Both the position numbers and the translations under genes were made by a program. The notes beneath the pieces are model-generated. The model ran no database searches. It was given only the letters and a program-made list of their open reading frames with translations, and had not been told where the DNA came from. This document shows positions 49,229 to 62,386 of a stretch of 64,000 nt of DNA, in pieces. Origin of the DNA: a bacterium (GTDB lineage: Bacteria > UBA8248); contig CBDBZY010000064.1 in assembly GCA_965213685.1 (NCBI GenBank), forward strand, positions 256,001 to 320,000, read 5' to 3'. Positions within the stretch are counted from its first letter, which is position 1. Each line of letters begins with the position of its first letter.

Positions 49229-52200
49229 TCACATTTTTTCATATCCTAGTCTTCCTCTAATCATGTTGACACAGGGACCAAAAGTGAAAACAAAACCATC
49301 CTGAAAGAAACAGATAAAGGAGTATATATCAGCATATGAACAGAGTGTTGAACTCTGGGTTAGTAACCTTAATAAGAAAGGGTAGGTCCTTCCAGAATGC
49401 CAAATTAGGAATAACGTCCAATCCTCTAGCCTCCTTTGCTTGGTACATGTAGATTCCTCCGACCACAAAGTAAGTAATCACTCCGACAATTGCCCTGTAG
49501 GTGAAAGTCAGTTGACAATGTAAAGCTATTGTCTATACTAGCAATCCAACAGGCCACTAAAACAGAGGTTCTGTATCACATGGTTCTACAACTGTAGCAC
49601 TAGCCAAAACATAATATTATAAGCCAAACGTTTCGACTGCCCTCCAGCAGTCTTCTTCAGTGGCAAATGACACACAGAGTACAGCACACAAGTACATAGC
49701 AACGAACAATACTACAGTTGTAGAACCGTGTGTTATGGATTCACCTAGCCACACAGGCCTCTATAGAGGCTCTGTATGATGTACAGTGGAGCCTCTGAAC
49801 AACGGACACATTGGGAGCAGGCCTTTTGTCCGTTGCAGAGAGGTGTCCCTATCTGGGAGATTGACTCTCATGTAACTTGGTTCTACCCTTAAGTACACTC
49901 TACCAACTGTTGCTTAAGCATATTAGTGGCCATAGCAACTTGGCCTGAGCTACGCCGTAGTATCCTTGGTACACACATGGAGCCACGCCTTCTCTTGTGC
50001 AAGGGGGCGTGGCTTTCAGTCTGTCCACTCTTAGAAGCTTTTTTTTACAGCCATGATCATTCTGGGCCTAGCTGAGTGTTCGTTGTCCAGAACAGAGAGG
50101 CTACAATTGTCCATTTCTCGGAGGTTAAAAATGTACTAGATGCATGCTAAAATCAAACGGTGCCTTTCGTGCTGTCCGTTGTATGGAGGTTGTCCGCATC
50201 TCGGAGGGTCCGTTAAGGGAGGTTCTACTGTAGTAGCAGATGTATAGAGATACTGAAGAGAGCATTGCATGCCCCCATCGTTATTCCTCTTTGTCATTAG
50301 AATCACTCAAAAATGAAGGCTGTAAAATCCTCAAAGTAATCAAAGATCAGAATAGAAATGTCATCCCTTCAATCCCATGGCACAGTATGCTCTGTTCAAT
50401 ACTAGAAATGTACGCCACCAGTGCTTGGAAGCAGGCACCTTGTGAATGTGTCTGCCACAAATAGTCTAGTGCCTATGGTTCTATCAGGGAAGGCAGTGAA
50501 CTCCAATACCTACATGCTCCTATACATCTTCTATCTAGTCTACTATGCAACTATTAATGTCAATACACATGTGGACAAACGTTGGTTACTGACAGTGCAA
50601 TGATGACCCAGCCAATCACTCCAGCTTCTGTTCCTCCTCCTCCACCTCCTCCTCCACTGCTTTGTGAGACAAAAGCAACAACCTTTCCTGTTGCTGCAAA
50701 CTCCTGGATTTGAACAAAAAACTATACTACATAAAACATTGATGGTGTAAATCTATTGGCAATTTAATAAGGAACTATCTGTATTTCACTAAAGGTTTGC
50801 CTGAACCTTCATGCATTATAGTGAGTCTGGCTACATAGCCTGAGAGCTTTACAAGTACGTACATTAAGTGAGGAGGCAAGAGGCCCTTTGGATGCTTCTG
50901 CAGTTGAATGAACAACTTTGGAGAATTAATAGAGAGTGCCAACACCACACAATGGATGTATTCTCCGAAGCAGAATGATGAGGTGTGATGGGATATGCTC
51001 AGGTTTCCCAAGCCAAAACATTCTAAAGGAAGGTTGACTCATATCTCACATGTATTGAGGAAGTAGAGAGCTCATCCCAGTTTATGCATGAACATCTAGG
51101 CTAAAGATTCAAACTGGGATTAATACACCGATGAGAGATAAACAAACGTGTTGGAAAAAATATAAAAACAGACTTATGGATAACGTACAATGGTCATTAC
51201 TGCCATGTCAAAAAATAGTGTACTGCATGAAAATACAACAATACTTTTATAATATCAACCTACATAGGTAACATCAGGAAGTTCCTCTGAAAATGCAATT
51301 GTTGGAGGGTCCGTTTTTGAGTATGTAAATCTCATTTTTGCTTGTCTAAGGGAAGAAGAGCGATACCGATCAATATGCTACTATTATAGAGTCAGTAGAC
51401 TCTCTATGTAGGAGTGGGGCTGACACACCCATGGCATAATGCGTGTACATTTCTAAACTCCTAAACATCATTGTCACAGCACAATGCTGTTCCCTATAAT
51501 CTTCTAGCATAGGCTAAAGAGAATGCCATGCAAGTACTAAAAACGATGCAGGAATGTGGTTTTTGTGTGCCCTAGCTGTCTTCCCTGCACACTGCCATCC
51601 CTACGCTTAGCTTCTGCGGTTTTGACACTGCCATCCCTAACATCCTTCTACCATTTTTGAAAATGTATTGATAACGTATGTTGCAGTTTTGCATACTGCT
51701 TACCTTGCAGTACCATCTGAATCAGGATCTCCATCAAAATAGTTAATAGTAAAATAGAGGGGGTCGTAATCATTTATAAACCACGTCATGTCACTAGTCT
51801 GTCGGCCCAGTACAGTCCAACGATCTTGTGAAATTATGTACTGGCATACCTGCAATGCAGATAGTAGTAATTTAGAGAATATGCCTTTGTAAGTACAATG
51901 TACGTATTATATAGTAAGTGCTAATGTAGAGTAATGTGACATAGCCTATAGTAAGAAAGTTACTTTTTTCTGTCACTCTGAGGCAGGTTATGTGACAGCA
52001 TACAATAAGCATGATCCATGTACACATGTTAGCTATCAAGGGGCTAAGACAATTATTTGTACTTACTGTTCCCACATCAACATCTGGCTCACAGACCATC
52101 GGTGTACAAGGATTGAATTTGTATGAATACTTTGCTGGGTCATCAGACAGAACGTCCACACTGTATGGGTAGAGCCCAGAATGGCAACAGTACATGTATA

Positions 52201-59696: not shown

Positions 59697-62386
59697 CTAA
59701 TGGAGGGGCTGATAGTAAACATGACTCCATCCTGGATATAGGAAGAGGATTGAGGTAGATATTTTGGGTTAGATGTACTTGATTACAATGTAGTCAAACC
59801 GTGAATAGGAAGGGAAGGTGAGTGCAGAATGGACTTCTTTTCTTTACGGGCCCCCCTCCTGGTGTACATGTAGATCCCTCCAATCACATTTAGCACAAAG
59901 CATGACACAATAGCAACTATAGCTCTGTAAGGGACACAAATAGCACAACCTTACAACCTTGATGTGTACACAGTTCAATACCAGAAGTGTATATACACCA
60001 CCAGGGCCTTAGAAACAGGTACCCGATGAATGTGTCAGTCACAAAATTAGTCTAGTTCTATTGAGAAGACAATACATACCTATACTCGTATCTTCTACCT
60101 ATTCTTTACTACCGTATAGTGGGTATTTTTCGGGGGGGGTGAAATTTTAATGAGGAGTGAATTTTTGGCCAGTTTGTGGAAAAATTTTCATGGTCGCGGT
60201 ATACTAAACCACACCCCAGTACATTGCGCTACTGTTTTGTGGGTAAAAAGTTCATGGTTCGCCTCTCAACCACGAAAACCACGAAACTTGTACCCCCCTA
60301 AAAATACCCACTATATGGTACTACATGACAATACACATGTGGGCAAACACTTGGTTACTGACAGTGCAATGATGACCCAGCCAATCACTCCCAACTCTGT
60401 TCCTCCTCCACCTCCTCCTCCACTGGTTTGTGAGACAAAAGCAACAACCTCTCCAGTTGCTGCAAACTCCTGGGTTTGATAAATATTGATGGTGTAAATC
60501 ATCAACATCCTCCTTCCTTTCCTCCCTCCCTCCCTCACTCTTTTCCTCCTTCCCTTCCTCCCTCCCTACCTCACTCTTTTCTTCCTTTTTTTTAAACAAA
60601 TGCACATTATGTAGACAAGAACTATATACTTGTTTTCACATAACATTTTGTCTAAACCTTCATGCCTTATAGTTAGTCTGGCTTTAGTCAACCCTCAACA
60701 TGAGAGCTTTGCAGGTATGTACATTAAGTGTGAGGAGCCAAGAGCTGATCAGGCCATTTGCTTCTGCATGCAGTTGAATTGAACAACTTTTAAGAATGTT
60801 CGATGACTACCAACTGATCAAACATGCACAAATATTGCAAAATACTTTTGGAAATTTGCCTTGTGTAGAGTCTGATGGGATATGCTCAGGTTCCCCAAGC
60901 TGGTGTGGAAATATGCCAAAGAGTTCTAAAGGAACCCAGTGTGTTTGATTCACACGTATTGAGGCGGTAGAGACAGAGATATCGCCCCATTTTATGCATG
61001 AACATGTAGGGCATAAAGTATCAAACTAGGAATAATGTACCGCCAAAAGACAAACAAACATGGTCGATGAAAACATATAAGTACTGACCTATGGATGACC
61101 TACAATGATCTTTACTGCCACATAAATAATATAGTGCACTGCATGAAAATGCAACAATACTAATACACACTTTTGTTTGCAAAGTACATATTACAAATGT
61201 ATCAACCTACATAGGTGACATCAGGAAGTTCCTGTGAAAATGCAATTGTTGGAGGGTCCGTTTTTGAGTATGTAAATCTCATTTTTGCTTGTCTAAGGGA
61301 AGAAGAGCGATACCGATCAATATGCTACTATTATAGAGTCAGTAGACTCTCTATGTAGGGGTGGGGCTGACACACCCACAGTACGTGTGCATGTGAAAAC
61401 CTTCTAAACTCTCCTGAACATTGTTTCACTGCATAATGTTGCTCCCAGTAATCTCATAGCATAGCTAAAGGAAGATGCAATGTTATAAACATGATGTAGG
61501 AATGGGATAGTTGTGTGGTCTTTGTATGCCCTGCTTTGCCTGCACGCTACCATCTCTACACTCACATGTAGTTTCTGTGGTTTTGGTCACTGCCATCCCT
61601 ACATCCTTCTAAATTCTTGGAAAGTGTACTGGTGACATTATGTAAGCACTATATACATACTGCTTACCTTGCAGTACCATCTGAATCAGGATCTCCATCA
61701 AAATAGTTAATAGTAAAATAGAGGGGGTCGTAATCATTTATAAACCACGTCATGTCACTAGTCTGTCGGCCCAGTACAGTCCAACGATTTTGTGAAATTA
61801 TGTATTCGCATACCTACAATGCAGATAGTAGTAATTTAGAGAATATGCCTTTGTAAGTACAATGTATTTGTAAACTGCAAACGTACAGTAATGTGAAATA
61901 GCCAATAGTAAGTAAGTGACTTTATTGTGAGGCCATTTATGTGACAACATACAAAAATATGCATGATCCATTTGTGCATACATAGTGAATATCGAGGGGC
62001 TAAGACAATTAGAGTTAAAGCAACGTGCAAGTATACTGTGGGTGTTATTGAACATGGTTGAGGTTGAGAGAATGATAACGCACTCGGCTTCACTATGTGA
62101 TTATTATTTCTCGAGAGTGCAACAGCAGGACTGGTCAACTACACGTATGTTCTGATAAGGCGATAAGGCATTTCTATGAGGTTGTGAGCTACTGCATGTA
62201 TTTCCCACAGCTGTATGTTAACTTCCACCGCCTCTAGCATGGAGTTTATTGTACTGTTGGCACTTTTGATACGCCCATGCAGCTGTACTTACTGTTCCCA
62301 CAGCAACATCTGGCTCACAGACAATTGGTGTACAAGGACTGAATACGTATGAGTATCTTGTTGGGTGATCAGATTGAACTTCCACA
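59697..62386 (-). CDS. MRH receptor copy I, exons 2-7 (exon 1 expected just beyond the window), frameshift-type tail with ITIM-consensus VYYQPL
   Basis: Exons 62386-62293, 61813-61668, 61292-61211, 60469-60363, 59924-59800, 59731-59697 are open. Tail [33 protein letters not shown]. Confidence 0.8.

Follow-up and report, generated by a model that had tools for sequence, protein, structure and literature searches.

How did neighboring genes come to encode receptors with nearly the same extracellular part but different cytoplasmic tails, and do such genes form pairs? The question is raised by a minus-strand tandem array of small 7-exon genes encoding type I membrane proteins, found in a 64,000-nucleotide (nt) stretch of DNA (the window), which spans positions 256001-320000 of the 1.64-Mb contig CBDBZY010000064.1. 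The window is eukaryotic (43% G+C, microsatellites, and GT-AG introns), and the genome sequence searched amounted to 8 Mb. Conserved exon peptides and intron phases, together with splice sites, guided the gene models. In descending order of coordinates, the array reads I, H, G, F, E, D, C, and B. An initial annotation of the window had drawn attention to three of these genes.

49229..53620, minus strand: gene G, intact, 7 exons, 262 amino acids, canonical tail; all introns GT-AG, frame open (exons 53620..53463, 52160..52067, 51849..51704, 51345..51264, 50703..50594, 49494..49368, and 49300..49229)
54493..58818, minus strand: gene H, chimeric pseudogene; exons 1 to 4 G-type, exons 5 to 7 I-type with shifted tail (exons, by homology, 58818..58661, 57439..57346, 57122..56976, 56620..56539, 55253..55161, 54724..54600, and 54527..54493)
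59697..62386, minus strand: gene I, exons 2 to 7, intact, 248 amino acids, shifted tail; introns all GT-AG, frame open to the stop in the last exon (exons 62386..62293, 61813..61668, 61292..61211, 60469..60363, 59924..59800, and 59731..59697)
64536..64379 (window-equivalent coordinates, beyond the window), minus strand: gene I, exon 1

The annotation described G and I as almost identical in exons 3 to 5, and they are: the identities are 46/48, 26/27, and 32/36 amino acids (143/146, 80/82, and 100/107 nt) for exons 3, 4, and 5, respectively. Exon 2 is much less alike (22/31 amino acids, 80/94 nt). The models also bore out the description of two tails, one canonical and one frameshifted. The G tail, made of exon 6 (49494..49368) and exon 7 (49300..49229), contains a Phe-Trp (FW) pair and ends in GYEKM, while I exon 6 (59924..59800) ends in phase 1, one base into a codon, and I exon 7 (59731..59697) ends in VYYQPLH. 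Finally, a constant phase-2 intron splitting the membrane helix had been noted. Exon 5 ends 2 bases into a codon, in the middle of the helix, in every model, and exon 6 begins in phase 2, within the helix, in all 11 modeled genes and, by homology, in H.

Separate histories of ectodomains and tails

Ectodomains and tails gave conflicting trees. The ectodomain tree was built from proteins (16 rows, including 4 outgroup sponge proteins) and the tail tree from DNA (12 rows); gene D entered the trees with its stop coded as X, and K2 was left out of all trees. In the ectodomain tree, B was sister to K1 (support 100/100), C to Cp (96/95), and D to Dp (100/99), and G, H, and I were nearest neighbors. 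The tails of B, C, H, and I instead formed one group (100/100), adjoining E (99/98), and the tail of G joined that of F (98/96). The shifted-tail label needs three changes on the ectodomain tree. A single clade of B, C, H, and I was rejected by the ectodomain data in an approximately unbiased (AU) test (P = 4.7e-6), and the tail data rejected the groupings G+H+I (P = 2e-18), B+K1 (P = 7e-36), and C+Cp (P = 4e-8). Separate phylogenies, the check proposed in the initial annotation, were strongly incongruent, and the AU tests rejected congruence. These data support the conclusion that the tail cassette has had a history different from that of the ectodomains and that the tails are modular. The remaining genes in the comparison are as follows.

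46014..48349, minus strand: gene F, intact, 263 amino acids, canonical tail, which is sister to that of G
41071..43001, minus strand: gene E, intact, 257 amino acids, canonical tail; nearest relative of the shifted-tail cassette
37339..40360, minus strand: gene D, pseudogene, duplicate of Dp, canonical-type tail
31158..36333, minus strand: gene C, exons 1 to 5, frame open, shifted cassette downstream; sister, Cp
3516..10483, minus strand: gene B, exons 1 to 5, frame open (10483..10302, 8186..8096, 7783..7644, 3913..3832, and 3640..3516); sister, K1
Just upstream of the window: Dp and Cp, both intact, canonical tails
Second cluster on the same contig, 240 kb away: K1 and K3, both intact, canonical tails, and a third member, K2

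The shifted tail lies in a cassette of ~550 bp that has 4 copies in the 8 Mb, all of them within the window.

59424..59975, minus strand: cassette in I, comprising the final ~50 nt of intron 5, exons 6 and 7 with the 68-nt intron 6 between them, and 3′ flank
54220..54776, minus strand: cassette in H, a recent copy of the cassette in I
23051..23633, minus strand: cassette near C (exon 6, 23550..23426; exon 7, 23357..23323), 7.6 kb downstream of C exon 5, with repeats on both sides
1473..2025, minus strand: cassette near B (exon 6, 1937..1822; exon 7, 1753..1719), 1.6 kb downstream of B exon 5

The copy near B is without a 9-nt insert (VLN) that the other three share. That B, with its very different ectodomain, carries the same shifted tail had been claimed from the outset. 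The cassette downstream of B agrees with this, and its strand, splice sites, and phase fit B exon 5; we infer from such models that exon 5 is spliced to the shifted exon 6 in the shifted-tail genes.

In all three sister pairs, homology stops inside intron 5. For I and G (ectodomain identity, 175/193), the G-like sequence ends at 59973, in intron 5, and the cassette begins at 59975. For B and K1 (172/203), homology ends at 3414, ~100 nt past exon 5, and for C and Cp (169/189) it ends at 30562, ~600 nt past exon 5 and ~200 nt before Cp exon 6. Among themselves, the three heads (I, B, and C) have ectodomain identities of 36 to 39%. The pattern is wider than first described, with three canonical/shifted pairs and a likely dead fourth owner of the cassette. 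C is part of a segmental duplication of Cp-Dp, and because the edges of that duplication lie in Cp intron 5 and at the Dp start codon, C was born without a tail and D without a start.

The cassette core starts 50 nt before the end of intron 5, takes in exons 6 and 7 and the 68-nt intron between them, and stops 30 nt past exon 7. Core identities are 316/336 (I and C), 309/327 (I and B), and 307/331 (C and B). Intron 6 is identical at 64 to 66 of its 68 positions, and the 3′ flank is only 62 to 81% identical. Since intron and exon are equally conserved within the core, its uniformity points to homogenization rather than to coding selection.

To account for these observations, we favor, with confidence slightly better than even, a birth-and-death tandem array in which chimeras formed in intron 5 and gene conversion acted in patches. 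The locus would be an array of demosponge CD-MPR-like (MRH-domain) type I sorting receptors. A lineage sister to E would have lost a net 11 nt in exon 6, giving an exon end in phase 1 and a shifted exon 7 frame, and the resulting cassette would then have been placed after exon 5 of three unrelated ectodomain lineages (B, C, and I), each a young duplicate of a canonical-tail gene (K1, Cp, and G, respectively). The simplest route would be a segmental duplication or deletion that broke within intron 5 of same-strand neighbors; such chimeras would stay in frame because every gene has a phase-2 intron there. Patchy gene conversion would hold the cassette cores ~94% alike and parts of G and I 97 to 100% alike. 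A later, nonhomologous 5.2-kb tandem duplication would have made H, with its G head and I tail, which is now decaying.

Other features were seen around the cassettes. Between B exon 5 and its cassette, two inverted relic exons, a G-like exon 4 (E = 0.01) and an E-like exon 5 (E = 6.7e-12), lie on the plus strand at 2081-2497 and may be remains of the gene that first owned the cassette. Dispersed repeats with 30 to 200 copies in the 8 Mb, at 23500-25000, 22500-23000, and 30000-30500, flank the C cassette and fill the 7.6-kb intron 5. A long poly-C tract and then a (CA)n microsatellite mark the cassette's 3′ edge in H (54170-54235) and in I (59370-59430). The cassette was also considered as a general repeat; this candidate was rejected on its copy number and on the confinement of all copies to the window.

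Duplication and probable gene conversion among G, H, and I

Self-blastn showed a 5.2-kb tandem duplication (50798-56022 versus 56024-61280; 93 to 98% identical) in three blocks: 50798-53206/56024-58477 (92.9%), 53263-55331/58469-60551 (94.2%), and 55296-56022/60553-61280 (98.1%).

50798..56022: duplication unit 1, with G exons 1 to 4, spacer, and H exons 5 to 7
56024..61280: duplication unit 2, with H exons 1 to 4, spacer, I exons 5 to 7, and part of I exon 4
55953..56024, minus strand: duplication junction and headless second exon 4 of H (partial exon 4, 56021..55953)

Each unit runs from inside an I-type exon 4 through an I-type tail and a spacer to G-type exons 1 to 4 and most of intron 4. 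H has a G head on an I tail because it sits on the duplication joint. At the junction, G-type intron 4 is joined directly to an I-type exon 4 that is without its first 12 nt and its acceptor; a three-way alignment showed a clean homology switch between nonhomologous points with at most 1 nt shared. H contains two frameshifts, an extra nucleotide near 56994 (exon 3) and a 14-nt deletion after 55180 (exon 5). Reading through H leads to a stop in exon 4, and there is no open chimeric reading frame. H is a pseudogene, and G and I are older paralogues.

Since the units are 93 to 98% identical, a divergence that is conceivable between alleles in a heterozygous invertebrate, we asked whether G, H, and I could be a false tandem join of two haplotypes, in which case H would not be real. 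This assembly artifact is very improbable. Haplotype misjoins normally use shared sequence, whereas this junction links a point in G intron 4 to a nonhomologous one within I exon 4, with no more than one base in common; H has private frameshifts; and G and I are not alleles, because their introns differ by 13% (12.7% over 2404 aligned nt of introns 1 to 4) and their tails are unrelated.

Hybrid genes produced by unequal exchange are known from the Lepore and anti-Lepore globins and from the red-green opsin hybrids. Like these, H combines the head of one gene with the tail of its neighbor at a duplication joint, and I, B, and C likewise join a head to a foreign tail, always with the break in a single intron. 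Unlike them, the H junction is nonhomologous and out of register, leaving the headless second exon 4 behind, and one tail cassette is joined to three different heads.

Identity between G and I is a mosaic. Exon 1 and the next 120 nt of intron 1 are 98 to 100% identical, a 470-nt stretch of intron 1 is 87 to 97% identical, exons 3 and 4 are 95 to 100% identical, exon 2 is 76 to 80% identical, and other intron parts are 57 to 87% identical. Exons 1, 3, and 4 together contain 2 synonymous differences in ~80 synonymous sites, where ~10 are predicted from intron divergence. The scarcity of synonymous differences and the presence of a 100% identical intron stretch argue for patchy gene conversion between G and I.

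Exon 2 of I and G (62293-62386 versus 52067-52160) falls below its flanking introns (81 to 87%), with 10 amino-acid-changing and 4 silent differences; either diversifying change may have been concentrated here, or gene conversion may simply have passed the exon over. Intron 3 of G, H, and I (tiles at 51500, 56500, and 61500) carries a repeat with 18 to 54 copies in the 8 Mb.

Sorting-receptor identity and the two tails

Pfam scans of the array genes were made with single-exon translations. G exon 6 alone scored 28.4 bits against ATG27 (cutoff, 27) and 24.6 bits against Man-6-P_recep (cutoff, 25.4); there was no credible Pfam match for the 5 other exon-region translations (4 from G and 1 from H), a single one of which matched DUF6341, far below threshold (E = 0.13). 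A protein search with G exon 6 alone returned a single fragment, P0001. A profile of 8 canonical exon 6 peptides returned 38 proteins, including CD-MPR or CD-MPR-like proteins of Geodia, Halichondria, and Ephydatia, and the closest named proteins are demosponge entries of this kind. All 38 relatives have the canonical tail, the query profile itself being canonical. The Pfam thresholds of PF02157 and PF09451 were both passed by all 6 relatives scanned (5 sponge or unnamed proteins and 1 beetle CD-MPR), in some of them from ectodomain to tail. In local phmmer searches (Z = 1e6), all 10 intact spliced models matched the 5 sponge or unnamed relatives at E values of 1e-79 to 1.5e-05, with best matches per model of 1e-22 to 1e-79, and 7 canonical-tail models matched the beetle CD-MPR at ~1e-11 to 1e-13. 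Against structures, a profile of 11 relatives matched CI-MPR (1.6e-33) and CD-MPR ectodomains (~1e-3). Cys-Gln, Arg, and Tyr columns that are nearly invariant in the 11 relatives align with the CQ, R, and Y of CI-MPR domains 3 and 5. Based on the Pfam scores, the relatives that pass thresholds, the phmmer matches, and the CI-MPR residue alignment, the array genes are predicted to be sponge paralogues of MRH-type sorting receptors.

The nearly invariant Gln, Arg, and Tyr of the family are putative sugar-binding residues. The Gln is kept in G, H, F, E, C, Cp, Dp, K1, and K3 and is replaced by Glu in I and by Leu in B. An excerpt of one account of the MRH family gives Gln, Arg, Glu, and Tyr as its conserved mannose-binding residues (PMC9388126). 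Of these four, Gln, Arg, and Tyr, but not Glu, could be matched to columns in the alignment of the sponge family's relatives. A search for related loci with the canonical profile yielded 11 short, distant loci of 40 to 59% identity. A full-text literature search turned up no publication on a sponge expansion of this receptor family; an expanded mannose 6-phosphate receptor family, linked to symbiont digestion, is described in an excerpt of a tubeworm genome report (PMC8476170).

The canonical tail, encoded by exons 6 and 7, has an FW pair, a Cys a few residues on, and a terminal Tyr-x-x-hydrophobic motif. The FW pair is invariant (8 of 8 canonical exon 6 peptides), and the canonical models also have the Cys and the terminal Tyr motif. 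The FW pair and the nearby Cys stand in the same order in the canonical sponge tails as in CD-MPR, and neither is present in the shifted tails. As far as the excerpts of the respective papers go, loss of the distal tail or of residues 34 to 39 sends bovine CD-MPR to lysosomes (PMC2120581), palmitoylation of CD-MPR Cys34 is needed for normal trafficking and sorting (PMC2199859), and a diaromatic motif in the tail acts in returning the receptor to the Golgi (PMC2148169, citing Schweizer et al. 1997). The array proteins also resemble CD-MPR and other MRH receptors in overall build: each is a small type I membrane protein with an MRH-type ectodomain and one membrane helix. Unlike CD-MPR, the array family is multicopy, with at least 13 genes or relics on one contig, and 4 of its copies have a frameshifted tail without sorting motifs; sugar binding by its proteins is putative. 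Unlike vertebrate CD-MPR, the array ectodomain, by reading of the alignment, is without the cysteines of the C-terminal half, and the tail is short.

Relative to gene E, which has the closest canonical tail, the shifted exon 6 of I, H, C, and B shows a net loss of 11 nt in a rewritten stretch of ~27 nt. With the exon 6 donor site unaltered, the exon now ends in phase 1 instead of phase 0, which offsets the reading of exon 7 by one base and puts the new stop 35 nt into this last exon. In other animals, a message with its stop in the last exon need not be degraded; given the position of the new stop, the same would hold for the shifted-tail messages. The shifted tail has 31 residues. In all four copies the FW pair, the downstream Cys, and the terminal Tyr motif are lost, and in all four the tail ends in Tyr-Tyr-Gln-Pro-Leu-His, which provides a Tyr-x-x-Leu motif; the loose V-x-Y-x-x-L pattern fits the last residues of I only, the other three having Ala at the first position. 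Beyond the lesion the old frame can still be made out, although it no longer encodes the Trp and the Cys. Differences among the four shifted-frame peptides are few and mostly amino-acid changing. By reading of the models, the helix of the shifted-tail proteins is uncharged, with an Asn in 3 of the 4 copies.

No counterpart of the shifted tail was found in the collections searched. A profile of the four shifted exon 6 peptides had no hits among proteins of 20 to 72 amino acids in a word-indexed search of 5.8 billion clusters; a HMMER search of 1.84 billion representatives with that profile gave 2 chance matches to unrelated repeat proteins, confined to a GxxYxYTR stretch; and an exact 21-nt word from the cassette was found in no metagenome contigs. 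Gene D has an independent 29-nt deletion in exon 6 that ends at the same point as the cassette lesion and would also give phase 1. Because D lost these nucleotides independently at the same spot, this stretch of exon 6 seems prone to deletion. The alternative tail looks like a loss-of-motif lesion that has been propagated.

State of the shifted-tail genes

No lesion interrupts exons 1 to 5, the splice sites, or the start codon of I, B, or C, whose introns differ from those of their sisters by 6 to 13%. We compared this state with a model of neutral decay in which substitution and insertion/deletion (indel) rates were taken from the genes' own introns and the shifted-tail lineage alone decays. 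The chance of exons 1 to 5 staying intact, computed as a product of factors, was ~5e-5 for I, ~3e-5 for B, and 0.008 for C; with a 3-fold lower indel rate, it was still below ~0.06 for each. H and D, of similar or younger age, have two and three lesions, respectively, as the decay model expects. Although D and C share one duplicated segment and are equally old, D has a stop in exon 4, the 29-nt deletion in exon 6, and no in-frame start. That B, C, and I have kept exons 1 to 5 intact while D and H, duplicates of the same age, have broken down makes it probable that the three are still expressed. We lean toward the view that all three are still genes, under relaxed or changed constraint.

A number of observations count against this view or against the proposed course of events. 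The pairwise ratios of nonsynonymous to synonymous substitution rates (dN/dS) for the ectodomains were 0.53 (I and G), 0.62 (B and K1), and 1.29 (C and Cp), compared with 0.27 for G and F; the ratio for D and Dp looked unreliable and was not used. With differences polarized by other paralogues, the derived state was found in the shifted-tail copy at 33 sites and in the canonical sister at 16, with 21 sites uninformative (two-sided sign test, ~0.02). Both the dN/dS values and the excess of derived changes also fit young pseudogenes, and two of the three shifted-tail genes, I and B, have lost the nearly invariant Gln (to Glu and Leu, respectively). In the intactness estimate, intron indel rates may be inflated by repeats, and gene conversion from the intact sister could have repaired I. 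Splicing from exon 5 to exon 6 is assumed across 1.6 kb in B and across 7.6 kb of repeats in C. The order and mechanism of the three joinings are reconstructed, and the cassettes near B and C sit among rearranged relics and repeats.

Several of these points could also be read as signs that the shifted tail is a disabling mutation and that I, B, and C are young nonfunctional duplicates, truncated and upstream of dead-gene relics only by chance, that have not yet acquired stops. We consider this unlikely, though a serious contender. The dN/dS values of 0.5 to 1.3 would be expected of such duplicates. The loss of the key Gln in two of three genes and of all conserved tail motifs, the similar independent exon 6 deletion in the clearly dead D, the relic exons and repeats around the cassettes near B and C, and the birth of C without exons 6 and 7 of its own all speak for it. 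It is opposed by the intactness of I, B, and C, with its low neutral probabilities, despite 6 to 13% intron divergence from their sisters, by the three lesions of D next to the open frame of its coeval C, and by the two frameshifts of H, which is even younger.

If the genes are still active, as we favor, the shifted-tail proteins would present a G-, K1-, or Cp-like lectin domain off the normal Golgi-endosome recycling route, and the ligand-binding constraint would be relaxed in B, C, and I. Such proteins might go to the cell surface or to lysosomes, or might serve as partners restraining their sisters.

The initial annotation had gone further and proposed a combinatorial system of recognition and output modules analogous to paired immune receptors. 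The modularity of the tails stands, given the tree conflict and the breaks in intron 5. The analogy to a paired immune system is not supported: the alternative tail is a frameshift product without a signaling device and without a counterpart among the other proteins searched, the uniformity of its core points to gene conversion, its carriers are near neutrality, and H is a pseudogene. Paired immune receptors of vertebrates include KIR, LILR, and Siglec-5/14. The array shares with them its tandem arrangement, similar ectodomains on unrelated tails, partial gene conversion, and short tails born of changes in frame or stop. It differs in that its conserved tail is a trafficking tail, in that its alternative tail has no recognized device, and in that the opposition between an immunoreceptor tyrosine-based inhibition motif (ITIM) and a charged helix that pairs with an adaptor bearing an immunoreceptor tyrosine-based activation motif (ITAM) is absent. 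By reading of the models, the canonical tail is a sorting tail, the shifted-tail helix offers no charged residue to an ITAM adaptor, and I alone fits the loose V-x-Y-x-x-L pattern. The array resembles paired immune receptors in its anatomy, in tail swapping, and in gene conversion and fails on their defining feature, opposing signaling devices.

Read as an adaptation, such a paired-receptor system would keep each ectodomain in a recycling-tail and a shifted-tail version, so that one ligand has two cellular outcomes, with the cassette exchanged via the phase-2 intron. We regard this as improbable, although the three independent canonical/shifted sister pairs (G/I, K1/B, and Cp/C), the position of all three breaks in intron 5, the intact reading frames of I, B, and C, unlike those of H and D, and the Tyr-x-x-Leu motif at the end of all four shifted tails would suit it. 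So would the gene conversion that keeps parts of G and I alike, a process that also maintains likeness in some paired immune receptors. Against these stand the origin of the tail as a frameshift product absent from all other proteins searched, the mostly amino-acid-changing differences among its copies, an intron 6 conserved as well as the exons, the near-neutral evolution of the carriers, the replacement in I and B of the nearly invariant Gln that aligns with the CQ of the CI-MPR lectin domains, and the lack of a charged membrane residue and of any adaptor logic. The fullest version of this idea, to which we give little credence, would have demosponge MRH lectin sorting receptors held in matched pairs for at least three ectodomain types, with an ancient recycling tail set against a frameshift-born Tyr-x-x-Leu tail that leads to the surface or lysosome. 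The portable cassette would be kept uniform by gene conversion, and the whole would be an independent, pre-bilaterian form of paired-receptor logic acting on trafficking rather than on kinase signaling.

Should the shifted-tail genes be expressed, the locus would indicate that a frameshift can create a new cytoplasmic tail in an early-branching animal, that a conserved intron phase lets one tail join several recognition domains, and that gene conversion keeps the partners matched; it would also offer a natural experiment on the roles of the CD-MPR tail motifs outside vertebrates. Should they be silent, the locus would be an ordinary, well-resolved case of birth-and-death turnover in a tandem receptor array.

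Further members and features of the locus were recorded. In K2, on the minus strand at ~20.1 to 25.5 kb of the contig, exons 1 to 3 and exon 6 are recognizable and exons 4, 5, and 7 were not found by automatic projection; the gene has either diverged or been disrupted. An orphan F-like exon 1, split over two frames and with no further exons nearby, lies on the minus strand at 20955-21091 of the window and is a further relic of array turnover. Positions 15558-17135 and 18235-19812 form a perfect (100%) inverted repeat of 1578 bp with arms ~1.1 kb apart; possible sources are a recent transposon bearing long terminal inverted repeats, a palindromic duplication, and an artifact of assembly. Positions 6001-8000, in the long intron 3 of B, show strong strand asymmetry, with a GC skew of -0.35 and an AT skew of +0.22.

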